In this document: positions 33,293 to 51,973 of the stretch, piece by piece
Position numbering within the stretch: position 1 is the first letter of the stretch
Layout: each line of letters begins with the position of its first letter
Program-made: the position numbers and the translations under genes
Assembly (NCBI GenBank): GCA_021793215.1
Contig: JAJYTE010000009.1
Span: forward strand, 4,664 to 68,663
Direction: 5' to 3'
DNA length: 64,000 nt
Origin: Bacillota bacterium
GTDB lineage: Bacteria > Bacillota > Sulfobacillia > JAJZYS01 > JAJYTV01
The notes under the pieces: model-generated
Seen by the model: the letters and a program-made list of their open reading frames with translations, nothing else
What the model was told of the DNA's origin: nothing
Database searches by the model: none

Positions 33293-33311
33293 ACGCTCCT
33301 CCTCCTCGTGC

Positions 33312-34319
33312 CTACTTGAGGGTTTCCAGGAAGGCCACGAGCGACTGGATCTGGGTCTGTGACAGGTTGAGGTTCGGCATCAGGGCTCCTGGCTTGACCC
33401 CAGGCGGATTGTGCAGCCACTTCGCGAGGTTCGCCGGCGTGTTCGTCAGCGTGCCAGCCGCGATCGTCGGACGCGTCATCAACTCGGTGAGGTTCGGGCC
33501 GACCTTGCCGTTGAACGACGTGCCGCCGACTGTGTGGCATGTCGAGCAGTCCTGCTTGAAGAGGGCCATGCCGGCCTTCTGCTCAGACGTCGTCACGCTC
33601 ACCGTCGGGTGCTGCATCGCGGAGACCCACGCCTGGTAAGCCGCCGGGGTCTGCACGACCACCTCGAACTTCATGTAGGCGTGGCCCGGTCCGCACAGCT
33701 GCGCACACTGGCCGTAGAACGTACCCGTCTTGCTCGCCTCGAGAAGGAGGTGGTTGACGCGGCCTGGGATCAGGTCCGTCTTGCCGCCGAGTTCCGGCAC
33801 CCAGAAGGAGTGGATGACGTCCGCGGATGTGAGCACGAAGTTGATCTTCGTGTTGACCGGGATGTGCACGATGTTGGCCGTCGTGACCTTGCTTCCCGGG
33901 TAGTCGAACTCCCACCAGTACTGGTGGCCGACGACGTCGACCTTCATCGCCGTCGCCGGCGCCTGGAACGCGAACGAGTAGTGCACCGTCGGGATCGCGA
34001 GGAACACGAGGAGGATGATCGGGATGATCGTCCATACAATCTCGAGCGTCGTGTTGCCGTGCACCTGCTTCGGCAGTTCGTTGTCACCCGGCCGCGCGCG
34101 GAAGCGGATGATCGAGTAGAGGAAGACGGCTGCCACCACGATGAAGATTCCAGTCATGATCGCGAGAGATTCCCAGAACATGCCGAGCTGCGCGCTGGCC
34201 ACGGGACCGGCCGGCGAAAGAGTGGACTGCTTGCCGAGCCCGCAGCCACTGAGGAGTGCCGCCGCCGAAAGCGCCAGGAGAGGGAGTGTTACCCGAAAGC
34301 CGCGCTGCGTCCACCTCAA
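33312..34319 (-). CDS. ctaC: Cytochrome c oxidase subunit II with fused cytochrome c (caa3)
   Basis: Lipobox LLSGC; DVIHSFW; CAQLCGPGHAYM; CSTCH. Confidence 0.95.
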   Translation of the reverse strand: MRWTQRGFRVTLPLLALSAAALLSGCGLGKQSTLSPAGPVASAQLGMFWESLAIMTGIFIVVAAVFLYSIIRFRARPGDNELPKQVHGNTTLEIVWTIIPIILLVFLAIPTVHYSFAFQAPATAMKVDVVGHQYWWEFDYPGSKVTTANIVHIPVNTKINFVLTSADVIHSFWVPELGGKTDLIPGRVNHLLLEASKTGTFYGQCAQLCGPGHAYMKFEVVVQTPAAYQAWVSAMQHPTVSVTTSEQKAGMALFKQDCSTCHTVGGTSFNGKVGPNLTELMTRPTIAAGTLTNTPANLAKWLHNPPGVKPGALMPNLNLSQTQIQSLVAFLETLK

Positions 34320-36568: not shown

Positions 36569-36678
36569 GGAACGCACCTCCACAGGCGCAGTCTGCCCCC
36601 GGTGCGACATGCCGACGCGCCCGATCGGTGGTATCATTGACGACAAGGGATTCAGGCGGGTTTCGGGGAGGGACGGAC

Positions 36679-37389
36679 GTGGGACTGATGTCTCGCATGT
36701 CGACGATCTTCAAGTCGAAGGTCAACTCGGCACTGGACTCGGTTGAGGATCCGCGCCAGACACTCGACTACTCGTACGAGCGGCAGATGGAACTGCTGCA
36801 GAAGGTCAAGCGCAGCCTCGCGGACGCGGTTACCTCGCGCAAGCAGATCGAACTGCAGAAGGTGCGCCTGGAGAGCGACGCCCAGAAGTACCAGACGGAG
36901 GCGGAGGCGGCCCTGAAGGCGGGCCGCGAGGACCTGGCGCGCGAGGCGCTCGAGCGCAAGCAGTCGCTCCTGGCCCAGGGCCAGGGGCTTGACGCGCAGA
37001 TCGCCGACCTGCAGCAGCAGGAGGGCAAGATGGCGGAGACGGCGCGCCGTCTCGAGACGAAGATCGCCTCCTTCCGGGCGCAAAAGGAGGTTCTTAAGGC
37101 GCAGTACACGACCGCGCAGGCGCAGGTCAAGATGGGCGAGGCCACGACCGGCATCTCCGAGGAGATGGCCGACGTCGGCCTCGCGGTGCAGCGGGCCCAG
37201 GACAAGACGGAGCGCATGCGCGCCCGCGCCATGGCGATCGACGAGCTGCAGGACAAGGGAGTGCTGGAGGACGCGATGGCGCCGGGGCAGGACCCGATCG
37301 AGCGCGAACTGCAGAAGACGCAGCAGAGTGCGCAGGTCGACGCGGACCTCGCGGCGCTGAAGGCGAAGATCGGGGGCGACGGGAAGTGA
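36679..37389 (+). CDS. pspA: PspA/IM30-family protein
   Basis: MGLMSRM..EDPRQTLDYSYE; long coiled coil; AGREDLAREAL. Confidence 0.93.
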   Translation: MGLMSRMSTIFKSKVNSALDSVEDPRQTLDYSYERQMELLQKVKRSLADAVTSRKQIELQKVRLESDAQKYQTEAEAALKAGREDLAREALERKQSLLAQGQGLDAQIADLQQQEGKMAETARRLETKIASFRAQKEVLKAQYTTAQAQVKMGEATTGISEEMADVGLAVQRAQDKTERMRARAMAIDELQDKGVLEDAMAPGQDPIERELQKTQQSAQVDADLAALKAKIGGDGK

Positions 37390-37750: not shown

Positions 37751-38851
37751 TTGCGCAAGATGCCCGTGACACGGGCCCTGATCGGCAAGGTCGCCGCGAA
37801 GACTGTACATGCCCCCAGTGGCACCCTGCCGCTTGTCATTCGAGGCGCGACCATCACCGCAGCGACGGTGGAGGCCTTGTGCCGTCGCGGCATTCCGGCG
37901 CTCTGGGTGGTGGATTCCCTCTTCCCGGACTTCGAAGCGCAAGAGGTGATCCGGGAGGATACGCGCAACCTCGTGCGCAGGTCGGTGCAGGAGATCTTCG
38001 AGGTGGCGGGATCCGCGAAGCGGCGTCGCGCCTCGAACCTGACCGAGAGCCGGTTGTCCGAAGCCGTCGGCAAGCTCGTCGACGACGTCGTGGACAACCA
38101 GGACGTCGTGGCCAACCTCGGACGGGTTCGTTCGTGGGACAACTACACGTTCGAGCACTCCGTGCAGGTCGCCACCCTGGCGGTGGTGATCGGCAAACGC
38201 ATGCTGATGACGGAAGACCAGCTCATCCGCCTCGGCACCGGGGCGATCCTGCACGACGTCGGGAAGGTCACCGTGCCGCTGGAGATCCTCCAGAAGCCTG
38301 ACCGGCTGACGCCGAGCGAGTACGAAGTGATGAAGGGGCACGCGCGGGCTGGGTGGGACATCGTGCATGAGGGCTTCCAGAACATCATGCCGACCTCCTC
38401 GATCGTCGTGCTGCAGCACCATGAGCGCCTCGATGGCTCGGGCTACCCGCAGGGACTGAAGTCCGAGCGCATCTACATCTTCTCCAAGGTCGCGGCGGTC
38501 GCCGACGTGCTGGACGCCGTCCGGGCAGAGCGAGACTACAGGCAGAACCATCGGCCCGCAGAGGTTCTGCGCATCATGCAGCAGGACGCCGGCGTCAAGC
38601 TCGATGCAACTGCGGTCAAGATCGCCTTGCGCCACATCTCTCTCGTCGCGGTGGGCGAGATCGTCCGGCTGACGAACGGACTCCTGGGCATGGTCACAGC
38701 CCTCAACGAGGGTGAACCGCTCCAGCCGGTCGTGACCCTCGTGGCCGACGACCGGGACAAGCCGGTCGCGCGCGAACAGCTCGATCTGATGGGTTCGGAG
38801 CTTCAGGTCGCGGAGGTGCTCGACGACTGGCCGCAGGGGTTGGGAGGGTAG
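37751..38851 (+). CDS. HD-GYP phosphodiesterase
   Basis: YTFEHSVQV, LHDVGK, HHERLDGSGYP. Confidence 0.92.
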   Translation: MRKMPVTRALIGKVAAKTVHAPSGTLPLVIRGATITAATVEALCRRGIPALWVVDSLFPDFEAQEVIREDTRNLVRRSVQEIFEVAGSAKRRRASNLTESRLSEAVGKLVDDVVDNQDVVANLGRVRSWDNYTFEHSVQVATLAVVIGKRMLMTEDQLIRLGTGAILHDVGKVTVPLEILQKPDRLTPSEYEVMKGHARAGWDIVHEGFQNIMPTSSIVVLQHHERLDGSGYPQGLKSERIYIFSKVAAVADVLDAVRAERDYRQNHRPAEVLRIMQQDAGVKLDATAVKIALRHISLVAVGEIVRLTNGLLGMVTALNEGEPLQPVVTLVADDRDKPVAREQLDLMGSELQVAEVLDDWPQGLGG

Positions 38852-38855
38852 CATC

Positions 38856-39971
38856 GTGCGCAAGGCGCTGGTCTCCGATGCGATCCTTGGCAAGTTCGCG
38901 GCGCGCGAGGTTCCGGGGCCGCATCCGTCCCGCCCATTGCTTCGCAAAGGCGCCCGGATCAACGAGGACGTTCTGTCCGCGATCGAGCGGTACGGCCTCA
39001 ACGTGATCTGGATCAGCGATGAACTCCTGCCGGACGTCGAGACCAAGGAGGGCGTGCGGATCGAGACCCGCGAGGCGGCGCGAAACGCCTTCCGCGGCGC
39101 CTACGAGGCGGCTGAGCGGTGGCAGGAGGACAAGACTCCTCCCAAATCGGACGACGGCTCGCGCATCATGAGCTCCGTCCGCATGCTGGTCGCCGATGTC
39201 ACGAGCAACCGCGATGTGCTCAGCAACCTCAGCTTCATCCGCGCCTGGGACGATTACACCTTCGAGCACTCGGTGCAGGTCGCGACCGCATCGCTCCTGC
39301 TGGGCAAGCAGATCGGCCTGGATGAGGATGCGCTGCACCGGCTCGGCATCGGAGCGATGCTGCACGACGTAGGCAAGGCGCTGATCCCCCAGGAGATCCT
39401 GCGCAAGCCCGGTAGGCTCACAGACGAGGAGTTCGCGGTCATGCGCATGCACCCGCAGCTTGGCTGGGAGTTCCTGCGCGCGGGCTTCCCGACGATCATG
39501 CCGACCTCTTCGGTGGTGGCGCTGCAGCACCATGAGCGCCTCGACGGCTCGGGCTACCCGTTCGGCCGCCGCGAGCACGAGATCTACCTCTTTTCCCAGA
39601 TCGTCGCCGCCGCCGACGTGTTCGACGCGCTCCGCGCGCAGCGGGCCTACAGGTCGGACCTGAGCCCCGCCGAGGTGGCCGCGACGATGCGGCGGGAAGC
39701 GGGCGCCCACCTGCGCCAAGACCTCGTGGAGATCCTTCTCTCCCACGTCGCCCTGGCACCGGTCGGAAGCGTCGTCCAACTCTCCGACGGCAGGTACGGC
39801 ATGGTTACGAGCGTACGGCCGCAGGCGCCGCTGCATCCGGTCGTCCGCGTCGTGTCACACGACGGGGAACGCAGGCTGCGCGACGACGAGGTCGACCTTG
39901 CAGAGGACCACCTCGAGATCACGCAGCTCCTGGACGGATGGCCGGACGAGGTCCTCTCGCAGGCGCGGTGA
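38856..39971 (+). CDS. HD-GYP phosphodiesterase (tandem paralogue)
   Basis: YTFEHSVQV, LHDVGK, HHERLDGSGYP, ADVFDAL. Confidence 0.92.
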   Translation: MRKALVSDAILGKFAAREVPGPHPSRPLLRKGARINEDVLSAIERYGLNVIWISDELLPDVETKEGVRIETREAARNAFRGAYEAAERWQEDKTPPKSDDGSRIMSSVRMLVADVTSNRDVLSNLSFIRAWDDYTFEHSVQVATASLLLGKQIGLDEDALHRLGIGAMLHDVGKALIPQEILRKPGRLTDEEFAVMRMHPQLGWEFLRAGFPTIMPTSSVVALQHHERLDGSGYPFGRREHEIYLFSQIVAAADVFDALRAQRAYRSDLSPAEVAATMRREAGAHLRQDLVEILLSHVALAPVGSVVQLSDGRYGMVTSVRPQAPLHPVVRVVSHDGERRLRDDEVDLAEDHLEITQLLDGWPDEVLSQAR

Positions 39972-40086: not shown

Positions 40087-41028
40087 TCAGGGCGCGGCGA
40101 CGGCGAACAGCGGATCGTCCTCCCCGATCGCGAGGGATCGCGCGGTGAAGAGCACCTCGCCGCGCTCGGGCGAGCGCACCTCGTGCAGCGTGTCGCCGTA
40201 CGCGTCGTGCAGGACCCCTGCGACCTCGCCGGCCGAGACCGTGGTGCCCGGATGTACGCGGGGGCGCCAGAGGCCGGCTTCGGGCGCGCGGCGCCAGACG
40301 AACCGCGTGTACACGGTAGGGTCTGGCTTCGGAGGCGGGCCGCCCGGAAGCATCCCGAGCGCTCTCAGAACGTTCTGGACGCCGTGTACGTGGATCGCCT
40401 GCGAAACGGGGTCGAGCTCCCCGCCCTGGCCGGCTTCGGGCAGGATCGCCGGGACGCCGAGTTCGGCGGCTGCTGCGTAGCTCCCGCCGGCAACGCTCGC
40501 GGAGCGCACGAGGCGAGGGATGCCGTACGCCGCAGCCATCTCGGCGGCGCGGCTGCGCACGTCGTCTTGGCCCCGGTCGGAGAAGATCGTGAACGGCACG
40601 AGTTCCTCGTGGATGTCGCCGCCATGCATGTCGATCCAGGCGTTGGCCTCATGCAGGACCCCGATGACGCGCGCCGCGATGCGCTCCGACGCCGTGCCTT
40701 CGGCGTCGCCCGGGAAGCAGCGATTGAGGTTCTTGCCGTCGAGCGGTGTGTAGTACTGGCTCTTCGCCCAGAACGCGGGCGGGTTCGTGAGGTGGAGCAC
40801 GATCACGCGCCCTCGCAGGGAAGCGGGGTCGAGCGTCCGCGCCAATTCGATGGCAGCTGCGATGCCTGGGTACTCGCCACCGTGCACGCCGCCCGAGACC
40901 AGCAGGGTCGGCCCATCGGTCGCGCCGCGCAGATCGGTGTAGGGGATCTCCACCGCGGTGCCCGGCACCGCGAGGACGCCGCGCAGCCTACTGCCCTCCA
41001 TCGCGCCTCGCAGGATGCCCATCGCCAT
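40087..41028 (-). CDS. Succinylglutamate desuccinylase/aspartoacylase (M14-like) family protein
   Basis: GGVHGGEY, NLNRCFPG, IDMHGG, EAG; C-terminal biotinyl-like domain. Confidence 0.9.
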   Translation of the reverse strand: MAMGILRGAMEGSRLRGVLAVPGTAVEIPYTDLRGATDGPTLLVSGGVHGGEYPGIAAAIELARTLDPASLRGRVIVLHLTNPPAFWAKSQYYTPLDGKNLNRCFPGDAEGTASERIAARVIGVLHEANAWIDMHGGDIHEELVPFTIFSDRGQDDVRSRAAEMAAAYGIPRLVRSASVAGGSYAAAAELGVPAILPEAGQGGELDPVSQAIHVHGVQNVLRALGMLPGGPPPKPDPTVYTRFVWRRAPEAGLWRPRVHPGTTVSAGEVAGVLHDAYGDTLHEVRSPERGEVLFTARSLAIGEDDPLFAVAAP

Positions 41029-41085
41029 CATTCCTCCTTGGGCACCGCTCGCCATGCGCAGATCGGATCCGATCCCGCCGCGCCG

Positions 41086-42885
41086 CTACCGCACCCGCCA
41101 GACGAGCACGCCGTCCGGCGATTCGGTGATCGGTGGACCCAGGGCGCCATTGAGTGCCCTGAGCGCAGCCGGCGACAAGGACGTGGCGCCATAGCTCGGC
41201 CGCGGGATGAAGACGAGGCGGCGCACGTGCAGCGTCCGAAGGTCCGCCGTCACGATGCCGGCGTAGACATCCGGCGACAGCGAGGGGGTCAGCAGGCCGT
41301 CGACGCCGGTGAGATCCTGCAAACGCGCCGCGTCGTTCGCGGTGTGGCCATAGGTGTTCGCGACCGGGAAGGCGTAGCCGGTCTCTTGCAGTGCCTGCAT
41401 CACCTCGGGGAACGCCACTGTGAGGACGTAGGTCGGCTGGCCGCGCAGCGCGCGCACGACGGGGGTGCCCGGCGCGAAGGCGCCGGTCGCCTGCGGCAGG
41501 GGGCTGTTCGTGTAGGGGATGAGCGGCAGCCAGGTGGCGACGACGGCCGCAAGCCACCAGAGCGGCCTTCTCCCGGTTCCTGCGCCCTGCCGCAGCCAGT
41601 CTTCTATCCCAAGGATCAGCAGCGACGCGACGGCCAGGTCCGCGTACAGCATTAGCCGTGCAGGCAGGAGGTCCTTGACGAAGGGCAGTTGATCGAAGAG
41701 CCACCAGGGCAGAGGGATCGGCGACGTCCATCCGAGGACGTGCAGCGTGCTGCCGAGGGAGAGGAGCGCGACGACGCCGCTGGTCCATGCGAGAATGCGT
41801 GCCAACGTCTGGGGCCACAGGCGCCGCAGCGACCAGATCAGCAGCAGGATCGCCGGGATGCCCAGGTAGCCGTTGTCCTCGGCGAAGTTGCCGGTGAACC
41901 AGTTCGCCGGGTCGACGAAGGGGATGTGCACGCTGAAGGCGCCGGTCGGAAGGATGAAGTTGAACAGGTCGGTGACGTAGACGTTCGGCGGCTGCACCGA
42001 GTGGAAGACGCGGTAGGGACCGAGCAGCAGTTCGTAAAGGCCCGGAGCGGCGAGAACGACGAAGACCGCGGCCGCCGCGATCCAGAACCGAGGCGGAGCA
42101 CGCCGCAGCACGCGCCGCAGCGCTTCGGAGTCCACGAGCGCCGCGACGGCCAGGCCGAGCACGAGGACCACCACGAAACTCACCAGTACCTCGACCAGCG
42201 TGTAGAACTGCACCGCCGCTGCGAGACCGAGCAGCGCCCCGAGAACCGCCGGCCGCCTGCCTTGGCCCTTCGCGACAATCGTGAGGATGAGCAGGGCGAC
42301 GAGCAGCGGTGCCGTGGTGACGAGGCTGATGTGCGAGAGGGACTGCGTCGTGATGTACGGCAGCATCGCGACGAGGCAGCCCCCGATGATCTGCAGCGAT
42401 TGGCGCACGCCGAGCCGGGCGAAGATCTGCTGGGCGAGTGCGCCCGCAGCCAAGATGTTCAGCCCGAACCAGACGTTGTACGCCGCCGCCGAGTTCATCA
42501 CCGCGAGCAGCGGACCGAGCGCGATGGACTCGGCGAGGATCGAGGTGTTCCACATGAGGTTCATGCCGTAGGGGTAGTTCATCAGGCGGGTGATGAAGGG
42601 GTTATGCCCGCCCGCGAGCGCGTGCCAGAACAGCCCGAGGTACCACATGTACTGTTCGGCGTCGCCGGGGTGTCCTGGGAATGTGCTGCCGGGCAGGACG
42701 ATCGAACGCCCGAGGAACAAAGCCGCGATCACGAGGTAGACGATGAGGCCCAGGCCCACGCCGTACGGCGTGGGCCTGGGCAGCGAGAGTTCCGGCCGGC
42801 GGCGCTCAGCCACTGCGCGGGCGAGGCGGCGCAGCATCGCGAGGATGCGCCTGGGGGCGCTCTGCGCCTTGACGACTCTCTGCAC
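41086..42885 (-). CDS. Polytopic membrane protein, probable GT-C glycosyltransferase
   Basis: First loop GDAEQYMW..HNPFITRLMNYPYGMNLMWNTS; more than 10 TM helices; extracellular C-terminal domain. Confidence 0.6.
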   Translation of the reverse strand: MQRVVKAQSAPRRILAMLRRLARAVAERRRPELSLPRPTPYGVGLGLIVYLVIAALFLGRSIVLPGSTFPGHPGDAEQYMWYLGLFWHALAGGHNPFITRLMNYPYGMNLMWNTSILAESIALGPLLAVMNSAAAYNVWFGLNILAAGALAQQIFARLGVRQSLQIIGGCLVAMLPYITTQSLSHISLVTTAPLLVALLILTIVAKGQGRRPAVLGALLGLAAAVQFYTLVEVLVSFVVVLVLGLAVAALVDSEALRRVLRRAPPRFWIAAAAVFVVLAAPGLYELLLGPYRVFHSVQPPNVYVTDLFNFILPTGAFSVHIPFVDPANWFTGNFAEDNGYLGIPAILLLIWSLRRLWPQTLARILAWTSGVVALLSLGSTLHVLGWTSPIPLPWWLFDQLPFVKDLLPARLMLYADLAVASLLILGIEDWLRQGAGTGRRPLWWLAAVVATWLPLIPYTNSPLPQATGAFAPGTPVVRALRGQPTYVLTVAFPEVMQALQETGYAFPVANTYGHTANDAARLQDLTGVDGLLTPSLSPDVYAGIVTADLRTLHVRRLVFIPRPSYGATSLSPAALRALNGALGPPITESPDGVLVWRVR

Positions 42886-42891
42886 GCACCC

Positions 42892-43929
42892 TCAGCCCCG
42901 CAGCCAGCGCGTGAGCATGGTGCGCGCGAAGCGGTAGCCGTAGACGAAGTCGTTGCCCTTCTTGCTCTGCCCTGCGAGCCGGCGCTGCACGGAGATCGGC
43001 GCCTCGACGATCTTCAGCCCCTGGCGGCGCACCAGCATGATCGTCTCCGCGGTGTGGTACTGGCTCTCCGACGTCTCGAGGTGTCGCAAGCGGTACACGT
43101 TGAAGGCGCGGAAGCCGGACGAGCAATCGGTGAGGTGCGTCGCCAACAGAAGGTTCAGGAAGAAGTTGAAGAACGAGAGCCCCAGAGAGCGCATCGCACT
43201 CACGCGCTCGAAGCTGCCGAGTCGGCGAGAGCCGATGACGAAGTCGGCGTCGCCGTCGAGCAGCGGGTGCACAAGCCCCGGGATGTCCTCAGGGCTGTGT
43301 TGCCCATCGGCGTCCATCGTGACGACGACGCGCGCACCGGCGCGCGCGGCGTAGTTGTATCCGATGCGGATCGCCGCACCACCGCCCATGTTGATCGGCA
43401 GATCGAGCACTGCGGCGCCGGCGCGCCGGGCGACGGCGGCCGTCTGGTCCGAGCAGCCGTCCGCGACGACGATCGGCGTGACCGCGAGGCCGAGAACCTC
43501 GCGCGGCAACCCCTCGATCACCTGCGCCACCGACTCCTCCTCGTCGAAGGCGGGCATGACGATGGCCACGCCATCGATCTCGACCGGGGCGCTGCTCGCC
43601 GCGATGCGTGCGACGAGGGCCTCCATCTGCTCCGCGGCGGTCTCCTGCCGCCGCCGCCGCTGGTCTGACGTCCAGACGGTGTACAGCCAGAGCACGAGGT
43701 TCGAGACCACGAGCAGCATGAACAGGCGCCGGCGCGGCGTCGCACCGAGTCGAAGGACCTCCGTCGGGAGGTTCGCGAGCCACGGGAAGAGCGAGACGAG
43801 CAGCAGCACGAGTGCGGCAGCGAAGCCGAGGCCGTCCGCTGCCGTCGGCGCACGGCGGGAAAGCCGGCGAAGGACTATCGAGGCGAGCGCCAGGGCGACC
43901 AGTACGCCGCCGATGCGAAGCGGGCTCAT
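42892..43929 (-). CDS. DUF2304-like membrane domain fused to a DPM1-like GT2
   Basis: Three-TM N-terminus, then VMPAFDEE, DGCSD, TMDADGQH, IGSR, DCSSGFRA. Confidence 0.85.
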   Translation of the reverse strand: MSPLRIGGVLVALALASIVLRRLSRRAPTAADGLGFAAALVLLLVSLFPWLANLPTEVLRLGATPRRRLFMLLVVSNLVLWLYTVWTSDQRRRRQETAAEQMEALVARIAASSAPVEIDGVAIVMPAFDEEESVAQVIEGLPREVLGLAVTPIVVADGCSDQTAAVARRAGAAVLDLPINMGGGAAIRIGYNYAARAGARVVVTMDADGQHSPEDIPGLVHPLLDGDADFVIGSRRLGSFERVSAMRSLGLSFFNFFLNLLLATHLTDCSSGFRAFNVYRLRHLETSESQYHTAETIMLVRRQGLKIVEAPISVQRRLAGQSKKGNDFVYGYRFARTMLTRWLRG

Positions 43930-43943
43930 CGTTCACAACCTCT

Positions 43944-44879
43944 CTATGAAGTGGAGGACAGCAGGTGGGGCGACGTCTTGAAGGACAGCCCGCCGACAAT
44001 CAGGGACATGACGAGCAGCGACACGTGGACGCCGATCGCGGCGACCGCTGCGATCGACCAAGGCGTGCCGAACAGCCGCAGGATCATGATCCACCAGACT
44101 TCCACGGTGCCGATACCGGCCACTCCCTGGACGGGCAGCACCAGCAGCAGGGCGGCGAGGGCGCCGCCTACGGACGCCTCACCCAACGTGACGGGAGCGC
44201 CGAAGCCGCGCAGCGCCAGCCAGTAGGAGAGGATCGAGAGGAGGCGCAGGCCGAAGGTCGAGGCCCAACTCGGCGCGTTGTACACCATGCCGTGCAGGCG
44301 TACGTCGGTATCGGTCAGGAATGAGTGCAGCTTCGGCCATGGTAGCGGCCGTAGCATGCGGAAGAAGAAACGCCGAAACCGCGGGATGAAGACGACCGTC
44401 GCGCCGAGCGCCGTGACGAGCATCGACGCGCCGAGCAGGTAGTACGAGGTCGCGGGCAGCGCAGATACGGTGAACCCGGCGACGCCGAGGATCACGAGCC
44501 AGGAGAGGAGATCCTGCACCCGCGCGACCGCCATCGCCGCCGTGGCGTGCGGCAGCCCGCCAGGGGCGTTGCGGTAGAGAAGCGGCATGGAGACCTCACC
44601 GATCCCGCCGGGCAGCACTTGGCAGGCGGCCGTGTACAGCCAGCCGATCGAAACGGTCACGGACCATGCCTGGCCATCCCGCAGCAGCTGGCGGAAACGC
44701 AGGCCGCGCAGCGCCGCGAACACCGGGTAGACGACGGCCAACGCCGCGAGCAGGCGCCAGTCCGGATGGACGTGCGAGAGAACGGCGAAGGAGCCGAGGC
44801 TCTTCAGCACTGCGTACACGCCGGCGAGGGAGAAGACGATGGGCACGCCCCAGGTCAAGATGCGCCGGTCCACGCCCAT
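43944..44879 (-). CDS. Lysylphosphatidylglycerol-synthase TM / UPF0104 flippase-like protein
   Basis: RFRQLL, LPGGIGE, ARVQDL, PVQGVAGIGTVE. Confidence 0.85.
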   Translation of the reverse strand: MGVDRRILTWGVPIVFSLAGVYAVLKSLGSFAVLSHVHPDWRLLAALAVVYPVFAALRGLRFRQLLRDGQAWSVTVSIGWLYTAACQVLPGGIGEVSMPLLYRNAPGGLPHATAAMAVARVQDLLSWLVILGVAGFTVSALPATSYYLLGASMLVTALGATVVFIPRFRRFFFRMLRPLPWPKLHSFLTDTDVRLHGMVYNAPSWASTFGLRLLSILSYWLALRGFGAPVTLGEASVGGALAALLLVLPVQGVAGIGTVEVWWIMILRLFGTPWSIAAVAAIGVHVSLLVMSLIVGGLSFKTSPHLLSSTS

Positions 44880-44915
44880 CGCCCTCCTTCCCGCACTGCG
44901 CCCGGGATTCCAAGT

Positions 44916-46064
44916 CTACCGCCAGGACACGTTCGGCATGATGACGTCGCGGTCCACGCGGTCCACGCGCTCTGACGCCCAGCGCAGCATCTGCTGCAGC
45001 ACCTCGATCGTGAGGAGCCGAGGCTTCATGCCGAGCGCGACGAGCCCGCTGTTCTTCGGGTTGTAGTGGTGCTGCTCGGACTCCACGCGCGGATTCGGGA
45101 TCTCGCGCGCCTCGGCCCGGATGCCGAGCGGTTGCGCCGCCTCCACCACGAGGTTGCCCAGCTGCTGCACCGTGAACGACTCGGTGAACTGGTTGAACAC
45201 GCGGAACTCGCCGGGGGCGGCCGGGTTCAACGCCGAGAGCTCGACGCACTGCAGGGTGTCGCGAATGTTGAGGAACGCCCGCTTCTGCCCGCCCGTGCCG
45301 TAGAGCGTGATCGGGACGCCTGCGACAGCCTGCGTCACGAACCGGTTGATCACGGTGCCGAACCAGCCGTCGTAATGGAAGCTCGTTGCGAGCATGGGGT
45401 CGAGGATCGTCTCGTCCGTCTCCGTGCCGTAGACGACGCCTTGGTTGAGGTCGGTGACCCTGAGGTTCCAGAGCTTCGTCGCCAGCATCAGGTTGTGGCT
45501 GTCATGCACCTTCGAGAGGTGGTAGAACGAGCCCGGGCTCTTCGGGAACGGCAGGCGGTCCTTTCGCCCGTTGTGCTCGAACTCGAGGTAGCCTTCCTCG
45601 ATGTCGATGTTCGGCGTGCCGTACTCGCCCATCGTACCCAGCTTGATGAGGTGCGCGTCCGGCGTCAGATCATGCATCGCGAACGCGAGCTGCAGCGTTC
45701 CGAGCACGTTGTTCGCCTGGGAGAGGATCGCGTGCTTCGCGTCGATCATCGAGAAGGGAGCCGACGGCTGCTCGCCGTAGTGAACGACCGCTTCGGGACG
45801 GAAGGATGATAGCACGCCGCGGATGGTCGCCTCGTCGCCGACGTCGCCGAGGTGCACCTCGATGCTGTGGCCGGTTCTCTGCTGGAACGTCTCCGAACGG
45901 TCCTGCAGCGAGGCGATCGGCGCGAGCGGAGCGACGCCGAGCTCAGCCTCCCACTTGCGCTTGAGCAGGTTGTCTAGGACCGCGACCTGGTGCCCGCGAC
46001 TCGCGAAATGCATCGCGGTCGGCCACCCGAGGTAACCGTCGCCGCCGATGATCAGGATGCGCAA
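44916..46064 (-). CDS. sqdB: UDP-sulfoquinovose synthase
   Basis: GGDGYLGWPTA, HYGEQPSAPFSM, KLGTMGEYGTP, GSFYHLSKVHDS, TDLNQGVVYG, FGTVINRF, VFNQFTE. Confidence 0.95.
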   Translation of the reverse strand: MRILIIGGDGYLGWPTAMHFASRGHQVAVLDNLLKRKWEAELGVAPLAPIASLQDRSETFQQRTGHSIEVHLGDVGDEATIRGVLSSFRPEAVVHYGEQPSAPFSMIDAKHAILSQANNVLGTLQLAFAMHDLTPDAHLIKLGTMGEYGTPNIDIEEGYLEFEHNGRKDRLPFPKSPGSFYHLSKVHDSHNLMLATKLWNLRVTDLNQGVVYGTETDETILDPMLATSFHYDGWFGTVINRFVTQAVAGVPITLYGTGGQKRAFLNIRDTLQCVELSALNPAAPGEFRVFNQFTESFTVQQLGNLVVEAAQPLGIRAEAREIPNPRVESEQHHYNPKNSGLVALGMKPRLLTIEVLQQMLRWASERVDRVDRDVIMPNVSWR

Positions 46065-46235
46065 CGAATGAGATCCCCCTTCGGCGCATGTGCCATGCGC
46101 TGCCTGGATGCAAACTACAACCAATTCGCTCCGGTTTGTGCGGTCCCTTCAGACCGCATGACCGTTGTACCAATCCGTAGGATAGCGCATCTCGATGAGA
46201 GCGGTGTACGAAATAGCGTAGAACCTTCTAAGAAT

Positions 46236-47363
46236 TCACCCGGCGAAGAACCAGTGCGCGTACGAGATCCAAAGGAAGACCTGAAACGCGCCGGAGAGGC
46301 CGATGGCCCAGCGCCACTGGTTCTCGCGCAGCCGCGCGGCGAACGTGAGGAACACCGGGAAGTACGGCATGATCAGCCGCGTGGCGCTCATCAGGACGAA
46401 GCCGTTCGGGATCGACGGATCGACGAGCGTCGAGAGCACACCGAAGAAGACGTAGAGTTTGTCTCCGAGAGAGAGAATGCCCCGGTCGAAGGCCAGGGCG
46501 AGAAGAAAGACGATCGGCATCCCGAGGTCGACGGCCGAGAGCGGCAGACCCTGGTTGTAGAACGCGTGGATCAGGCCGTAGCCGAGCGCGAAACCGCCTC
46601 CGGTGAAGTGGCGGTACCAAGTCGCCTGCTGCGCGACGAACTCGAGCGGGTTCCCGACCTTCACGTAGCTGAAGGCGAGGTAGGTCCCGAGCGCGGCGAC
46701 CGGCAAGAGGCACCAGAGCGCCCGTCGCCAGAAGAGCGCGTCCATGCGGCGGGCGGACGACTCCCAGGCGAACGCCAAGAGCGGCAGCACGAGCAGGATG
46801 CCGTTCGCCCGCTCGACAGAGGCGAGCGCGATCAGCGCCGCCGCAAAGCCCCACCTTCCCTTGCGCAGCAGCAGGTAGGCACCGACCGAGAGCAGGAGGT
46901 AGAGCGACTCGGCGTACATCGTGACGAGGAAGAAGGCGGAAGGGTAGGCGAGCAGGAGCACCAGCGCGCGTCGCATCAGCACCTCGCCCGCCTGCTCGCG
47001 CCAGAGCCGGGCGAGCAGCACGATCGCCGCGAGGTCCGCAGCCCATGAGGAGACGATGCCCGCGGTGACGAACGGCAGCCGCGTCACGGCATGCAAAGTA
47101 TGCACGACGAGCGGGTAGAGCGGGAAGAAGACGTACGCCGCCGGGCGGAAGTAGCCGTACACCGCGATCCGGTAGTACCACGCGGAGTCCCAGCGCGCGA
47201 ACGGCGAGAGCGGCCACCAGACGGGAGGCGTCCAATGGCCGTGGACCGGTGCAACGCGCACGCCGATGATCCCAATCACTAGGATGACGAGCAGGCTGAC
47301 GGCGAAGCCGAGCGCGGCGAACCGTGCGTCTGCGCGCCATGGCGGGGTGAAGGGACGCCGCAT
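46236..47363 (-). CDS. PIG-V/GT76-like GT-C glycosyltransferase
   Basis: RWDSAWYYRIAVYGY..FFPLYP, YPSAFFL..YAESLYL, RANGILL. Confidence 0.85.
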   Translation of the reverse strand: MRRPFTPPWRADARFAALGFAVSLLVILVIGIIGVRVAPVHGHWTPPVWWPLSPFARWDSAWYYRIAVYGYFRPAAYVFFPLYPLVVHTLHAVTRLPFVTAGIVSSWAADLAAIVLLARLWREQAGEVLMRRALVLLLAYPSAFFLVTMYAESLYLLLSVGAYLLLRKGRWGFAAALIALASVERANGILLVLPLLAFAWESSARRMDALFWRRALWCLLPVAALGTYLAFSYVKVGNPLEFVAQQATWYRHFTGGGFALGYGLIHAFYNQGLPLSAVDLGMPIVFLLALAFDRGILSLGDKLYVFFGVLSTLVDPSIPNGFVLMSATRLIMPYFPVFLTFAARLRENQWRWAIGLSGAFQVFLWISYAHWFFAG

Positions 47364-47365
47364 GC

Positions 47366-48484
47366 CTAACGCCGCATGCTGCGTTCGGTCTGCAGGGCCG
47401 GCTTCTGCTCCAGGTAGGTCCAGCGGTCGTTCAGGCGGTAGGTGAGCAGCACCGCCGCCACGATGCCGACCAACTGGTCAACCAAGCTGTACTCGAGGCC
47501 GAGTCCACGTAGGACGAAGAGCACTGTAGTCGTCAAAAGCGCGCCGAACTCCGCGACGACGAGGTAGCGCAAGGCATGGCGCCAGAGCTGATCGGACCGC
47601 ACGCGGTCGCGCCATGTGATGCTCGTGTTCCAGATGAAGTTCCAGAGCACCGCCACCTGCGTGGCGATCAGGGACGCGAGCAGCGTGCCATTCGGCACGA
47701 GGTCCAGGTAGCCGCTTGTCATCAAAGCGAACAGCGCGGCGTTGACTGCGACGCCGGTTGCACCGATCAGAGCGAACAGCAGAAAGCGAGTGTTGTCCGG
47801 GTTGACCGTGACGAGGTCCAGGAGTTGGCGCAGGTAGTCGAGCTGCGTCTGCCAGCCGAGCTTGGACTGGCCGGCACCGCGCGGTGCGAACGCGTAGGGC
47901 ACGTCGGTCGCGCGCTGCACGTCGCCGCGCACGAGCAGCTCGAGCAGGATCTTGAACCCCTTGGGCCGCGCGCTCAGGATCGGCGCCGCAGCCGCCCGGG
48001 TGACGAGGAAGCAGCCCGACATCGGGTCGCTCGTCACGCGGCTCTCGCGCAGCAGGATGTGCGCGAGGGCACGTCCGCCGAGCGACAGGAGGCGACGCAC
48101 GCCCGACAGGCCGCCGGGGTCTCCGCCGGGCATGTAGCGGCTTGGCACGACGATGTCCGCCCGCGTCTCGCGCTGCGCGCGCAGGAGATGGGCGAGCATC
48201 TCGGGCGGGTGCTGCAGGTCGCCGTCGATCACGGCGAGCAGGTCGCCGCGCGCGATGTTGAACCCGTCGATGACAGCCGTCGCCAAGCCGCGCTCCATGC
48301 GGCGCAGCAGGCGCACCCTGGAGTCCTCGGCGCAGAGCTTGCGGATCTCGTCCGGCGTGTCGTCGTGGCTGTCGTCCACGAATACGATCTCGAAGTCCTC
48401 GCCGTCCAGGGTGTCAACCACACGGCGGTAGAGGCTGCGCACGTTCTCGCGTTCGTTGTAGGTAGGCACCACCAATGAGAGCAA
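47366..48484 (-). CDS. Polyprenol-phosphate glycosyltransferase (GT2) with C-terminal GtrA domain
   Basis: VPTYNEREN, VDDS, DGDLQHPP, SDPMSG, GFKILLE; C-terminal FALIGATGVAVN..WNFIWN..W. Confidence 0.92.
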   Translation of the reverse strand: MLSLVVPTYNERENVRSLYRRVVDTLDGEDFEIVFVDDSHDDTPDEIRKLCAEDSRVRLLRRMERGLATAVIDGFNIARGDLLAVIDGDLQHPPEMLAHLLRAQRETRADIVVPSRYMPGGDPGGLSGVRRLLSLGGRALAHILLRESRVTSDPMSGCFLVTRAAAAPILSARPKGFKILLELLVRGDVQRATDVPYAFAPRGAGQSKLGWQTQLDYLRQLLDLVTVNPDNTRFLLFALIGATGVAVNAALFALMTSGYLDLVPNGTLLASLIATQVAVLWNFIWNTSITWRDRVRSDQLWRHALRYLVVAEFGALLTTTVLFVLRGLGLEYSLVDQLVGIVAAVLLTYRLNDRWTYLEQKPALQTERSMRR

Positions 48485-48630
48485 GTGCGCCCTCCTCGTC
48501 CTGAAATCCACGGCTAAGTATATCATCGGCTTCCGGCGAGGCTCCTGAGAGGCGCCTAAATGTGAGCGGGTTTAGCCTGCCCCACCGGAGACGAGGTACA
48601 TGCCCAGCGCAAGGTCAGTCGAGGAAGACG

Positions 48631-49194
48631 CTAGATCGGGCTCTGCCAGATCGGGTACCATCGCCCGAGATCCGGCTCGATCGGCAGGATGTCGGAAAGC
48701 ATCGCCTGCAACTGCAGTTCCCGGGCTTCCTCCCGATCCCTGCCGGTGGTTGGACGGAACGGGTAGTAGGTGGCCCGCTTGTAGTTGTAGACGAGGTAGG
48801 TGACGCCGCCGCGGTCCTGGAGGCGGAACAGGGCGGCGAGCAGTGCGCCTCCGTATCCCTGGCCCTCCAGCGTGTCTCCGGCGGCGTGCAGCCCGGTGAT
48901 GATGTCGTCGGGCCCGCCGCCCGCGAGAACGAGCCAGCGGAAACCCTCGGAGTCGAGTGGCGCATCGAGCGTGAGAGAGTGCTCCTGCGCGTAGAGCTGC
49001 GCGATTTGCTGCGCGTTGCTGAACGCGTCGGTGAATGCCTGCTCCTCCGACGGCCGGCAGCAGATGCCCGCCTTGGCGTCGAGTGGGACGCCCTTCGCCT
49101 CGAGGTCGGGCGCGACCGCCGCGAGTCGGAAGAGTGCATCGAACTTCGGCTTCTTGAGGCGCGTGCGCCCGAAGAGCGCATCGAAGAAGCTCAA
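48631..49194 (-). CDS. PspA-associated protein PspAB
   Basis: MSFFDALFGRT..DALF..YLVYNYKRATYYPFRP..RELQL..LPIEPDLGRWYPIW; downstream of htpX. Confidence 0.85.
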   Translation of the reverse strand: MSFFDALFGRTRLKKPKFDALFRLAAVAPDLEAKGVPLDAKAGICCRPSEEQAFTDAFSNAQQIAQLYAQEHSLTLDAPLDSEGFRWLVLAGGGPDDIITGLHAAGDTLEGQGYGGALLAALFRLQDRGGVTYLVYNYKRATYYPFRPTTGRDREEARELQLQAMLSDILPIEPDLGRWYPIWQSPI

Positions 49195-50072
49195 CGGTTG
49201 ATCTCCTGCTCAAGCCGGCGCAGGCGCTCGAGGCGGTGCTCCAGGGTCGGGTGCGTCTGGAAGAGTTCGTAGATCGAACCCTTGGCGACGGCGGGCATGA
49301 TGAACAACGCCTGCAGCGTCTCGGTGTGCCGCAGGTCCCGACGCGGGATGCGGCTCGCTTGGTGAAGTTTGACGAGCGCGGACATCAGTTGCGAGGGCTG
49401 CCCCGTGAGGATCGCGCTGCCGCGGTCCGCGGCGTACTCGCGGTAGCGCGAGAAGGCGCGGATGAGGAAGAACGAGATGATCCAGACCACCAGCGACGCG
49501 AGGTAGACGAGCAGGATGTTCTGCTCCTCGTCGCGGTCTCCGCCGCCGAACGGCATGAACCAGAATGCCATCTGGACGATGTAGCTCGCCACCGTGGCGA
49601 AGAAGCTGGCCATGGTCATCAGCGCCATGTCGCGGTTGTGCACGTGGGTGATCTCGTGCGCCAGCACCGCCTCCACCTCCGGCTGAGAGAGGCGGTCCAG
49701 GAGACCCGTCGTCGCCGCGACGACCGCGTGCCGCGGGTCGCGGCCGGTCGCGAACGCGTTCGGCATGTCGGTCCGCACGAGTGCCACCTTCGGCTTCGGG
49801 ATGTCTGCGAGCTGCGCGAGGCGGCCGACCATCTGCTGCAGTTCCGGCTCCTCGCCGTCGCGCAGCACGCGCGCACCCATCGACATGAGGATCAGTCGAT
49901 CGGAGAAGTAGTACTGCACGAGCAGCATGCCGCCCGCAATCACCACGATGCCGAGGAAGCCGACGCCAGCCCGCAGCAAGACCGCCACGAACAAGAGGTA
50001 GAGCGCTCCGAGCAGCACAAGCGAAAGCGTCATGCGCAGGGTCAGTCCGATGTCAGGGCGCAGTCGCCGCAC
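49191..50072 (-). CDS. htpX: Zinc metalloprotease HtpX
   Basis: PNAFATGR, AHEITH, SRYREYAADRG, FQTHP. Confidence 0.93.
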   Translation of the reverse strand: MRRLRPDIGLTLRMTLSLVLLGALYLLFVAVLLRAGVGFLGIVVIAGGMLLVQYYFSDRLILMSMGARVLRDGEEPELQQMVGRLAQLADIPKPKVALVRTDMPNAFATGRDPRHAVVAATTGLLDRLSQPEVEAVLAHEITHVHNRDMALMTMASFFATVASYIVQMAFWFMPFGGGDRDEEQNILLVYLASLVVWIISFFLIRAFSRYREYAADRGSAILTGQPSQLMSALVKLHQASRIPRRDLRHTETLQALFIMPAVAKGSIYELFQTHPTLEHRLERLRRLEQEINR

Positions 50073-50140
50073 ACGCATCCCTCCATACCACGCGATGGTC
50101 GTTTCCGTCACACCTATTCTGCTCTCCTTGAGCCAGGCGC

Positions 50141-50605
50141 TCAAGGCGAATGCAGGCGACGTCCCTTCGGGTTCCTCCCGCGCGATACGCGCGTGAACTC
50201 ATAGAGCGAACGCACGGTCTCCTTTAGATGGAAGAACTCCTGGTCGGTGGCCGCGCCGATGAAGACGTGCACCGTCGCCTGTTCGCCTTCGACCGTCGAA
50301 GCGGTGAAGCCGTTGCGGCGGAGCGAGCCGAGAAAGTGGCCGAGCTCCGCGGCATCCGGGTCGAACGCGTAGACGAGCATGTGCTCACCGCGCTCGGACG
50401 GACCGTGCGGCTGCTCCGGCGCCTCCTGCAGGATCATCTCGCACTTTGCCAGGAGCTCGATCGCCTGGTCATCCGCGTCGGCGAGCAGCGCATCGATGCG
50501 GTCGGCCTCGTCGAACGGCAGCGCGTCGCCCTGCGTCAGCCGCTGCAGACGCTGCCACTCCGCCTCGTCCAGGGCGGCGCGCAACCGGCTTGCCCGTTGA
50601 TCCAC
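50141..50605 (-). CDS. Hypothetical protein
   Basis: RBS AAGGAGGGGG, genome-typical codon use; no recognised family. Confidence 0.6.
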   Translation of the reverse strand: MDQRASRLRAALDEAEWQRLQRLTQGDALPFDEADRIDALLADADDQAIELLAKCEMILQEAPEQPHGPSERGEHMLVYAFDPDAAELGHFLGSLRRNGFTASTVEGEQATVHVFIGAATDQEFFHLKETVRSLYEFTRVSRGRNPKGRRLHSP

Positions 50606-50632
50606 ACGACCGCCCCCTCCTTCGTTCAGTCC

Positions 50633-51973
50633 TCAGTCTTTCCGCGCGGCGCCGTGATCCTCCTGCGGTCCGGACGCCGCTCCGCCTTCCTCCGCTTCCT
50701 CGCCGAGACGCTGCGCGATGGCGCCCGCGCGCAGTTCGTGCTCCTTGGCTTCGGCCGGCGAGCGTGCGCGCATCGCCTCGGCGACCAGCCGCTCCGGCAG
50801 GCTGCTGCTGCGTGCGCGCGCCGCCACCTCCGTCGCGCGCGCGACGTCGCCGTCGGCCAGAAGCAGGCGCGTCTCGAGCGTGATCGCGTCGGGTCGCCCG
50901 CGCAGCAGGGTCGGCGTGAGGCGGCGGAGGCGCGGCCAGTTGCCCGCCGTGAGCGCCGCCCGGCGCGCCGCGAGCAGCGCGCGCCCGTCTCCCACGAGCG
51001 CCGCGCGGCGCATGAGCAGCTCGGCGCGCAGCGCCTCGCGCCCTTCGCAGGCCGCGAGCATCTCGGAAAGCGCCGCCTCCCGCTGATCGGGCGGCAGCTG
51101 CTCGGCGCAGCGCAGTGCCCACACGATGGCCCTGCCCAGTCTGCCGCAGGACGCAGCGGCCGAAAGAAGCGCCTCCAAGACCTCGGGGTGGTCGCGTAGG
51201 AGGCTATGAAGCGCCCAGTAGGCAGCGCCGGGCGCCTGTCGTGCTGCGACGCGGGCGACGCCTCGCAGGCGATCCCCGCCGATCGCCGCGCAACTCCAGA
51301 GCGCGGCGAGGAGCGCGGACTGGAGACCCTCCGGCCACTCCTCGGGCTCAACCCTGCGGAGGGGGTCCAGCCAGGCGTCGGGTGCCCCGAGGTAGAGGCG
51401 CAGCCACGCCCCGGGCTCGCGGGCAAGGTCCGAGAGCCACGTCTGCGCGAGATCCCGCAGAGGGCCCTCGCGGGCCCGGCCCAACAGGGCGAGCAAGAGA
51501 CCCTCCGTATCAGATGAGGCCTGGAGCGCCTCCTCTACGCGCAGCACCGCCAGTTCGTCGGGCAGGGAGGCGAGGTCCTCGGCGCGTTCGGGCGGGAGCG
51601 AAAACGCCTCCAGGAGGTCCTCGCCCAACGCGGCTGCGACGAGCGGTGCGCGGCGGGGCTCTGAGAGGAACTGGTCGATCGCGGCGTCGGCATCCTTCGC
51701 GCTGACCTTGCGGGCATAGTACGCCTGCAGGATCGCCGCGGCGTGGCGGCAGTGCGGGCGCCCGCAGCTACAGGCGCTCACCCGAGATTCGCTCATCTCG
51801 CAGCGCGCCCAGTAGTCGTCGCGCACGCCCAGCACCTTGCCAGCGAGCGAATGGCCCGCGCGCCGCAGGTCCCGCACGCGCTCCTGCAGCACGTAGTCCT
51901 CTCCGGCGGCCCATGCCGAAGGGGTGAACGACCGCTCCAGCACGTCGAGCGGCGGCAGTGCTGGGATGTTCAT
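50633..51973 (-). CDS. SWIM zinc-finger protein with helical repeats
   Basis: AGEDY..CSCGRPHCRHAAA. Confidence 0.8.
   Translation of the reverse strand: MNIPALPPLDVLERSFTPSAWAAGEDYVLQERVRDLRRAGHSLAGKVLGVRDDYWARCEMSESRVSACSCGRPHCRHAAAILQAYYARKVSAKDADAAIDQFLSEPRRAPLVAAALGEDLLEAFSLPPERAEDLASLPDELAVLRVEEALQASSDTEGLLLALLGRAREGPLRDLAQTWLSDLAREPGAWLRLYLGAPDAWLDPLRRVEPEEWPEGLQSALLAALWSCAAIGGDRLRGVARVAARQAPGAAYWALHSLLRDHPEVLEALLSAAASCGRLGRAIVWALRCAEQLPPDQREAALSEMLAACEGREALRAELLMRRAALVGDGRALLAARRAALTAGNWPRLRRLTPTLLRGRPDAITLETRLLLADGDVARATEVAARARSSSLPERLVAEAMRARSPAEAKEHELRAGAIAQRLGEEAEEGGAASGPQEDHGAARKD

Follow-up and report, generated by a model that had tools for sequence, protein, structure and literature searches.

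The 64,000-nucleotide stretch of contig JAJYTE010000009.1 that was analysed here (the window; Bacillota bacterium, GCA_021793215.1) carries a cluster of six nearly contiguous open reading frames (ORFs) on the minus strand, from 41086 to 48526 (Table 1). Module B, as we call its later part, consists of the predicted UDP-sulfoquinovose synthase gene sqdB, a gene for a UPF0104 membrane protein, the second of two genes for family 2 glycosyltransferases (GT2) and a gene for a DUF6311 protein with the glycosyltransferase C (GT-C) fold; the two genes before sqdB form module A. The pairing of sqdB with the second GT2 gene is strongly conserved and recurs in Bacillota, Chloroflexota and Actinomycetota as well as in other lineages, and we propose, on the evidence of its family and of this linkage, that this GT2 is a UDP-sulfoquinovose:polyprenyl-phosphate sulfoquinovosyltransferase. 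The initial annotation of the window had suggested surface glycosylation by way of polyprenyl-phosphate-sulfoquinovose, and all of the computational tests run were in favour of this idea, whose product and acceptor are predictions.

Conserved pairing of sqdB with the second GT2

Eighty genomic loci (designated by L and a number) were recruited through SqdB, and an orthologue of the second GT2 was found near sqdB in 7 of the 80, namely in one from Bacillota (L001), two from Chloroflexota, two from Acidimicrobiia and two unclassified metagenome-assembled genomes (MAGs). The gene order in L001, sqdB-UPF0104-GT2, is the same as in the window. To remove recruitment bias, metagenome contigs were scanned with an alignment of the second GT2 alone, and matches of at least 250 bits were counted as full-length family members. 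There were 41 such members, 25 with an adjacent sqdB, 6 with adequate flanks and no sqdB, and 10 cut by contig ends; sqdB stood beside none of the 39 lower-scoring, generic GT2 matches. With only adequately flanked loci considered, sqdB accompanied 25/31 family members versus 0/17 generic GT2 genes (Fisher p 2e-8, uncorrected for relatedness).

The members that lack sqdB were scattered over a tree of the GT2 family and formed no clade of their own. A FastTree phylogeny of 104 SqdBs placed all 31 GT2-linked sequences in a 44-member set, which was split (support 95) from a 60-member clade holding all 7 SqdX-linked SqdBs, those of cyanobacteria, Alicyclobacillus, Salinicoccus and one acidobacterium. 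Taken together, the linkage counts and the two trees indicate that one distinct lineage of SqdB has this GT2 as its specific and conserved partner.

Conservation of the neighbourhood, which the initial annotation had put forward as a check, was thus found for the sqdB-GT2 pair across phyla, and UPF0104 and GT-C genes recur with it in unrelated lineages. UPF0104 accompanies the GT2 in L001, L082, L083, L087 (E 3e-26), L165 and L167; our home-made UPF0104 hidden Markov model (HMM) reached close relatives only, and it was Pfam that showed the protein in L087, L165 and L167. Genes in high-GC loci were called by codon usage. The GT-C gene beside the GT2 belongs to DUF6311 in the window and L082, to YfhO in L083 (weak match) and L099, and to PMT_2 in L066, L165, L167 and L168. 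Such a swap of GT-C families around a constant GT2 would be expected if the GT2 product were a polyprenyl-phosphate sugar donor; to our knowledge, GT-C enzymes use only donors of the polyprenyl-phosphate-sugar type.

SqdB and the classical sulfolipid partners

The sqdB product very likely makes UDP-sulfoquinovose. It aligns without gaps to Arabidopsis SQD1 (1i24) over 385 residues, with 52% identity and an E-value of 3.6e-141. The GxxGxxG NAD site reads GGDGYLG, and the catalytic triad is kept in GTMGEYG (Thr145 position) and FYHLSKVHD (Tyr182/Lys186), both aligned to the corresponding SQD1 motifs. The triad Thr145/Tyr182/Lys186 (SQD1 numbering) and the GxxGxxG motif define SQD1 and Agl3 (PMC4388408). 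The score of this short-chain dehydrogenase/reductase enzyme against the UDP-sulfoquinovose synthase model NF041015 lies far above that for any other family, and UDP-sulfoquinovose synthase is its only strong family.

The open frame of sqdB reaches 46124 (402 aa), and a TTG codon at 46064, 20 codons inside it, follows a strong ribosome-binding site (GAAGGGGGA, 46082-46074). We consider this TTG most likely to be the start, giving a protein of 382 aa, the length at which the SqdB orthologue of L082 was called. The 171-nt spacer upstream may hold an internal promoter; an Rfam scan of the spacer gave no match, and a promoter/terminator scan found no consensus promoter in it.

The absence of SqdX and SqdD from the window, remarked on in the initial annotation, holds. 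An SqdX HMM was built from five proteins that adjoin sqdB (three cyanobacteria, Alicyclobacillus and Salinicoccus; mutually 41-79% identical), and it matched nothing in any frame of the window, and none of the window genes of at least 200 aa that were scanned with Pfam encodes a GT4 (SqdX) or a GT8 (SqdD) enzyme. No SqdX-like protein was found in any locus with a full-length member of the second-GT2 family.

The second GT2

Sequence and predicted fold both place the second GT2 in the polyprenyl-phosphate GT2 group. It matches PF00535 (E 4.9e-20), and its top NCBIfam matches are PpgS (2.1e-31), AglJ (1.8e-25), a Dol-P (dolichyl phosphate) hexose transferase (1.7e-18) and ArnC (5e-11), all of them under the respective equivalog cut-offs. 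A profile of the family searched against the PDB retrieved dolichyl-phosphate mannose synthase (DPMS) first (4.8e-26), followed by ArnC and GtrB. The AlphaFold2 (AF2) model, with a predicted local distance difference test score (pLDDT) of 81.9, has three transmembrane helices at its N-terminus, which a long helix connects to a GT-A domain, and its Foldseek neighbours are ArnC, DPMS and GtrB, plus GpgS.

The residues that are invariant in the family are D157, D206xD208xQ210H211, G233-S-R235 and D268xxSGFR274, the three motifs reading D206-A-D208-G-Q210-H211, G233-S-R235 and D268-C-S-S-G-F-R274 in the window protein. The DPMS-type enzyme of the window itself, encoded by the first gene of module A, also has D157 (numbered as in the second GT2), DxDxQH, GSR and DxxSGF. 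What distinguishes the family from its generic relatives is P142, T204, G238, R274, E295 and K324; our guess is that R274 or K324 contacts the sulfonate.

In the initial annotation, this protein had been named a DUF2304-GT2. The name fits the family, in which 44 of 67 full-length-alignable homologues match DUF2304; the window protein itself gave no PF10066 match at E<0.01. Because so many family members match, the N-terminal three-helix domain of the window GT2 is probably homologous to DUF2304. GacJ and Rv3632 belong to DUF2304; they bind and stimulate the undecaprenyl-phosphate/polyprenyl-phosphate enzymes GacI and PpgS, and fusion of DUF2304 to GacI homologues in some deltaproteobacteria has already been noted (bioRxiv 10.1101/180810).

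The GT-C protein and the UPF0104 protein

The GT-C gene starts 6 nt after the stop codon of the second GT2 gene. Its 599-aa product narrowly misses the cut-off for GT87 (E 2.4e-5; 24.7 bits, cut-off 25), and precomputed Pfam assignments give PF09594 and PF19830 (DUF6311). The structure prediction bears out the initial description of the protein as GT-C-like: in a Foldseek search of the PDB with the AF2 model (pLDDT 93.6; predicted TM-score, pTM, 0.91), the top 24 matches were all GT-C enzymes, with a probability of 1.00 for the first 17 and TM-scores of at most 0.51. AftD, STT3, DPY19, AftA, AglB, PglB, Pmt4, ALG3 and EmbB are among the enzymes matched.

Asp75, which lies between the first transmembrane helix (40-62) and a helix at 75-91, is conserved in at least 90% of 50 homologues. 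This near-invariant residue is in the first external loop of the model, the location at which GT-C enzymes bear their catalytic acid; the basic N-terminus argues that the loop faces outward. The C-terminal part (440-599) is an alpha/beta domain. We propose that the protein is an extracytoplasmic sulfoquinovosyltransferase, with its donor and acceptor as predicted below.

The UPF0104 protein matches PF03706 over residues 32-296 (E 1.3e-13; 51.5 bits versus a cut-off of 33.4), as a homologue of the flippase domain of MprF. It is a candidate flippase for a lipid-linked sugar, and what points to such a role in the cluster is its recurrent adjacency to the GT2. Searches of PDB sequences found no match for this protein or for the PIG-V-like protein of module A.

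Proposed pathway and alternative explanations

In the pathway that we propose for module B, SqdB would make UDP-sulfoquinovose, a step for which homology is strong. The second GT2, as an inverting enzyme, would then use polyprenyl (undecaprenyl) phosphate on the inner side of the membrane as the acceptor for sulfoquinovose, yielding beta-sulfoquinovosyl-phosphoryl-polyprenol; the family membership of the GT2 and its conserved linkage to sqdB suggest this step. UPF0104 would carry the sulfoquinovosyl lipid to the outer leaflet, as suggested by its homology to the MprF flippase domain together with its recurrent adjacency, and the DUF6311 GT-C enzyme would pass the sugar to an extracytoplasmic acceptor, for example a lipoglycan, a polymer of the wall or a protein of the cell surface. 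Module A would probably act in the same way with a hexose, for which mannose is the best candidate, and its acceptor may be that of module B. On the envelope of this thermophile-related member of the Bacillota, which comes from mine tailings, the outcome would be a sulfonate decoration that is free of phosphate and permanently anionic. On balance, we lean towards this chain as a whole, from UDP-sulfoquinovose through the polyprenyl-phosphate-linked sugar and its flipping to an envelope acceptor, with module A working likewise on a hexose that is probably mannose. The wider generalization is put forward more tentatively, as a possibility that falls somewhat short of an even chance: a phylum-spanning pathway in which a dedicated DUF2304-GT2 makes polyprenyl-phosphate-sulfoquinovose, UPF0104 proteins form a new class of polyprenyl-phosphate-sugar flippases, and diverse GT-C enzymes sulfoquinovosylate envelope polymers or proteins.

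Several observations weigh against the proposed pathway. In the literature, there is no biochemical evidence for polyprenyl-phosphate-sulfoquinovose in any organism, and we found no report of a sulfoquinovose-bearing bacterial envelope polymer. Full-text searches combining sulfoquinovose with polyprenyl carriers, GT-C or DUF2304, and searches on Thermaerobacter lipids, returned no such pathway and no paper on sqdB-GT2. SqdB reached 445.2 bits against NF041015 (E 1.9e-133, full-length), short of the equivalog cut-off of 575 bits. The fold of the second GT2 also resembles that of GpgS, a soluble enzyme whose phospho-acceptor is soluble too. MprF, the characterised relative of UPF0104, flips lysyl-phosphatidylglycerol, a glycerolipid and not a polyprenyl-linked sugar. 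The six adequately flanked family members mentioned above, and likewise L165 and L168, have no sqdB nearby (within 7-8 kb). In five related metagenome contigs of very high G+C content (L100, L106, L109, L110 and L113), sqdB-GT2 stands by itself between housekeeping genes, and neither a GT-C nor a flippase gene adjoins it. Finally, several large polytopic neighbours in other loci are without a Pfam match; those in L101, L025, L099 and L085 gave no hhalign signal against a DUF6311 profile and were not counted as GT-C proteins.

Because the five contigs hold sqdB-GT2 without a GT-C or flippase gene, the GT2 product could be an end product in that group. One alternative is that the GT2 is a new sulfolipid synthase, placing sulfoquinovose on a membrane lipid that is itself the end product (e.g. 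beta-sulfoquinovosyl diacylglycerol or another glycolipid), with UPF0104 flipping that lipid to the outer leaflet and the GT-C enzymes serving other sugars. The occurrence of the pair alone in several lineages would suit such a function, as would the glycerolipid substrate of MprF, which is the sole characterised UPF0104 relative, and glycosylation of diacylglycerol by a GT2-family enzyme does exist, in the cyanobacterial MgdA. We nevertheless consider this explanation unlikely, since the nearest characterised or solved relatives of the GT2 are all polyprenyl-phosphate transferases, and the DUF2304 partner domain is known only with undecaprenyl-phosphate or polyprenyl-phosphate enzymes. Moreover, GT-C genes of three families adjoin the GT2, including the 6-nt junction in the window, and an inverting GT2 cannot make the classical, alpha-linked sulfoquinovosyl diacylglycerol (SQDG).

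It is less probable still that the GT2 acts on a lipid-pyrophosphate-linked oligosaccharide, to which it would add sulfoquinovose on the cytoplasmic side, and that the GT-C protein is the polymerase, ligase or oligosaccharyltransferase for the completed glycan. A precedent is found in Sulfolobus, where Agl3 and UDP-sulfoquinovose feed a dolichol-linked N-glycan (PMC4388408), and the best fold matches of the GT-C protein include the oligosaccharyltransferases STT3, AglB and PglB. However, Pfam scans found neither a priming phosphoglycosyltransferase nor a Wzx or ABC exporter nor further cytoplasmic glycosyltransferases in the locus, the 599-aa protein has no detectable STT3 Pfam match, and the GT2 family groups with synthases of monosaccharide-phosphate lipids.

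About equally doubtful is an incidental co-location, in which SqdB would supply classical SQDG synthesis by an SqdX or SqdD encoded elsewhere in the genome, and the two GT2/GT-C pairs would serve ordinary hexoses. Of this genome, the search for SqdX and SqdD covered the window, and some cyanobacteria have sqdB and sqdX at separate sites (PMC13436972). The breadth of lineages over which sqdB and the GT2 stay paired argues against such an accident, as do the split of the GT2-linked SqdBs from the clade with the SqdX-linked ones and the lack of SqdX in every locus that carries a full-length GT2 family member.

Agl3 is presumably a more distant relative of SQD1 than the window SqdB is, which bears on a last alternative, that the product of SqdB is a different UDP-sugar. 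Although the GT2-linked SqdBs are set apart from the SqdX-linked clade and the window protein misses the NCBIfam equivalog cut-off, we regard this as very improbable given the gapless alignment to SQD1 with all checked motifs kept and the finding that Agl3 makes UDP-sulfoquinovose (PMC4388408).

Comparison with known glycosylation systems

The proposed mechanism of module B can be described as a variation on the three-component glycosylation represented by GtrB, GacIJKL, PpgS and ArnC. In Streptococcus pyogenes, GacI and the DUF2304 protein GacJ make beta-sugar-phosphate-undecaprenol (bioRxiv 10.1101/180810). The GacI/GacJ/GacK/GacL system, through which the group A carbohydrate receives its side chain of N-acetylglucosamine (GlcNAc), resembles module B as proposed in combining a GT2, which the DUF2304 protein assists in the Gac system, with a flippase and a GT-C enzyme (GacL) that acts on a wall polymer (bioRxiv 10.1101/180810). 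It differs in its sugar, which in module B would be sulfoquinovose from a dedicated SqdB instead of GlcNAc. In the family of the window GT2 (44 of 67 homologues), DUF2304 is fused to the GT2, unlike in GacI/GacJ; the candidate flippase is a UPF0104 protein, whereas that of the Gac system is Wzx; and the GT-C enzyme is of the DUF6311 type.

The mycobacterial system of PpgS (Rv3631), Rv3632 and Rv3779, which places galactosamine (GalN) on the arabinogalactan of M. tuberculosis, is related through PpgS, the best NCBIfam match of the window GT2, and through Rv3632, a stimulating DUF2304 protein; its GT-C enzyme uses the polyprenyl-phosphate-linked sugar outside the membrane. The window GT2 is not a PpgS orthologue, because its score of 109 bits is far under the PpgS equivalog cut-off of 370. 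Module B would also differ in its sugar nucleotide, and the mycobacterial GT-C gene is unlinked.

The classical sulfolipid pathways, SqdB/SqdX in cyanobacteria, SQD1/SQD2 in plants and SqdB/SqdD/SqdC/SqdA in Rhodobacter and Sinorhizobium, share their first enzyme with module B. Unlike them, the window lacks a GT4 (SqdX/SQD2) or GT8 (SqdD) enzyme, and its sqdB is linked to an inverting enzyme from the polyprenyl-phosphate group of GT2.

A sulfoquinovose-containing surface glycoconjugate is made in Sulfolobus acidocaldarius, an archaeon. In the usual view, its sulfoquinovose joins a dolichol-pyrophosphate-linked glycan on the cytoplasmic side, and AglB then transfers this glycan; the system is not known to have a Dpm1-type step producing a sulfoquinovosyl-phosphate lipid or a UPF0104 partner. 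There, as proposed for module B, sulfoquinovose from an SqdB homologue, Agl3, goes to the N-glycans of the cell surface and not to a sulfolipid (PMC4388408).

The GtrA/GtrB/Gtr(type), ArnC/ArnE-F/ArnT and CsbB/GtcA/YfhO systems follow the same logic, with a GT2 that makes a polyprenyl-phosphate sugar, a small flippase and a GT-C enzyme outside. The solved structures nearest to the window GT2 include ArnC and GtrB, and GT-C genes of the YfhO type lie near sqdB-GT2 in L083 and L099. In contrast to these systems, module B would have a new sugar and a new candidate flippase family, and it encodes the synthase of the precursor within the module.

Module A

The first gene of module A carries PF00535 (E 4.8e-30) and PF04138 (E 3e-18) and matches the DPMS of Pyrococcus furiosus (5mlz) with an E-value of 1.8e-61, residues 15-370 aligning with 24-371. 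These domains agree with the initial annotation as GT2-GtrA. The part of that annotation that saw GtrA as a separate flippase does not necessarily follow: because the match to 5mlz is full-length, the GtrA part is better explained as the enzyme's own C-terminal membrane domain, with four transmembrane helices. By its sequence, the protein is a predicted polyprenyl-phosphate hexose synthase, with mannose as the probable hexose.

The PIG-V-like protein matches PF04188 (Mannosyl_trans2; E 4.7e-7, 29.9 bits versus a cut-off of 22.4) and has at least six hydrophobic segments; 2 nt separate the start of its gene from the stop codon of the first gene. The same DPMS-type/PIG-V-like pair is present in L082, and L083 keeps sqdB-UPF0104-GT2 and a YfhO-like GT-C gene without it. 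The arrangement in L083 indicates that the window holds two modules, in keeping with the two GT2/GT-C sets that were initially suspected.

Significance

Sulfoquinovose is usually treated as the sugar of photosynthetic sulfolipids, and its biosynthesis is framed only as SqdB-SqdX in a 2026 review (PMC13436972). The lipid-carrier route, if true, would add a new bacterial lipid intermediate, give the widespread DUF2304-GT2 family its first function, and offer a testable role for orphan UPF0104 proteins and DUF6311 GT-C enzymes. It would also mean that non-photosynthetic bacteria, here an inhabitant of mine tailings, gain a phosphate-free anionic surface that is charged at any pH, and that soils, sediments, aquifers and mine wastes hold an unrecognised pool of sulfoquinovose from a non-phototroph source. 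We would see such a decoration as a sulfonate analogue of teichuronic acid, that is, a phosphate-sparing anionic decoration of the wall.

Gene layout and genomic setting

All six genes of the initial annotation are present and co-oriented at the positions given there, and their G+C content at third codon positions (GC3) of 0.86-0.90 follows the codon-position pattern of real genes. The intergenic gaps, in order of transcription, are 2, 171, 36, 14 and 6 nt. G+C content per 2-kb step is 61-74% in the window and about 68% around the cluster. Families were assigned to the cluster proteins with Pfam and NCBIfam.

Table 1 Features of the cluster and the adjoining gene, in order of transcription
Feature	Position	Strand	Basis and remarks
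DPMS-type GT2 with GtrA/DPMS_TM domain, 386 aa	47366..48526	-	PF00535, PF04138, 5mlz; module A gene 1
PIG-V-like (GT76-like) GT-C, 375 aa	46236..47363	-	PF04188; module A gene 2
Spacer between module A and sqdB, 171 nt	46065..46235	-	Sequence read
sqdB, predicted UDP-sulfoquinovose synthase, 382 aa	44916..46064	-	SQD1 similarity, motifs
UPF0104/LPG_synthase_TM protein, 311 aa	43944..44879	-	PF03706; candidate flippase for lipid-linked sugar
Membrane-anchored Dpm1/PpgS/ArnC-type GT2 of the DUF2304-GT2 fusion family, 345 aa	42892..43929	-	PF00535, NCBIfam, predicted fold
GT-C-fold protein, DUF6311 (GT87-like), 599 aa	41086..42885	-	AlphaFold model, Foldseek
AstE/AspA-like zinc deacylase	40087..41055	-	PF24827, E 6.2e-32; doubtful cluster member

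The nearest named relative is a Thermaerobacter sp. MAG (GCA_021793645.1; L082), whose second GT2 is 86% identical and whose locus is fully syntenic, with genes for an M48 peptidase, PspAB, GT2-GtrA, the PIG-V-like protein, SqdB, UPF0104, GT2 and DUF6311. Near-identical sequence was found in metagenomes from mine tailings, mine drainage and aquifers. Mine-tailings runs labelled "RNA-Seq" cover the locus and its gene junctions; as assembled contigs that may derive from either RNA or DNA, they were set aside as evidence of co-transcription.

The AstE-like deacylase gene follows the GT-C gene on the same strand after 30 nt. It was rejected as a cluster member, since its absence from the syntenic L082 puts it outside the conserved unit, and it may have been inserted recently or be an addition specific to this lineage.

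Envelope-stress genes surround the cluster. PspAB and an HtpX-like M48 peptidase are encoded just upstream on the same strand (48631-50144), and PspA 4 kb downstream on the opposite strand (36628-37389), an arrangement that is kept in L082. Next to the cluster (37751-39971), two paralogues of the HD_5 (HD-GYP-like) family, 366 and 371 aa long, stand in tandem; the L082 counterpart of this region has one full and one truncated copy. Two genes upstream of the M48 peptidase gene (154 and 446 aa; 50141-51973) gave no Pfam match, and their position is conserved in L082. A caa3-type cytochrome oxidase and its assembly genes (CtaA, UbiA/CtaB, COX1, COX2-cyt c, CtaG and SCO1) flank the region at 28045-34319 and 56452-58634.

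Other sqdB and GT2 loci

In distant loci of the second-GT2 family, genes for S-adenosylmethionine (SAM) methyltransferases (L165:8108-9895, L166:8504-9220 and L167) are interleaved with GT2, UPF0104 and PMT_2 genes, and L167 has a SAM methyltransferase and a sulfotransferase gene among its GT2/UPF0104/PMT_2 genes (8047-9042, 12069-12968). The methyltransferases and the sulfotransferase suggest further modification of the carried sugar in L165-L167.

Most acidobacterial sqdB loci (L003-L079) have neither SqdX nor a DUF2304-GT2 within 10 kb. They share a PMT_2 GT-C gene (about 680 aa, 32 loci; e.g. L035:6663-8708) and, in 29 loci, a divergently placed gene of the GT21-like, ceramide/diacylglycerol glucosyltransferase type (e.g. 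L018:3674-4843). These PMT_2/GT21-like loci may represent a third, different sulfoquinovose route.

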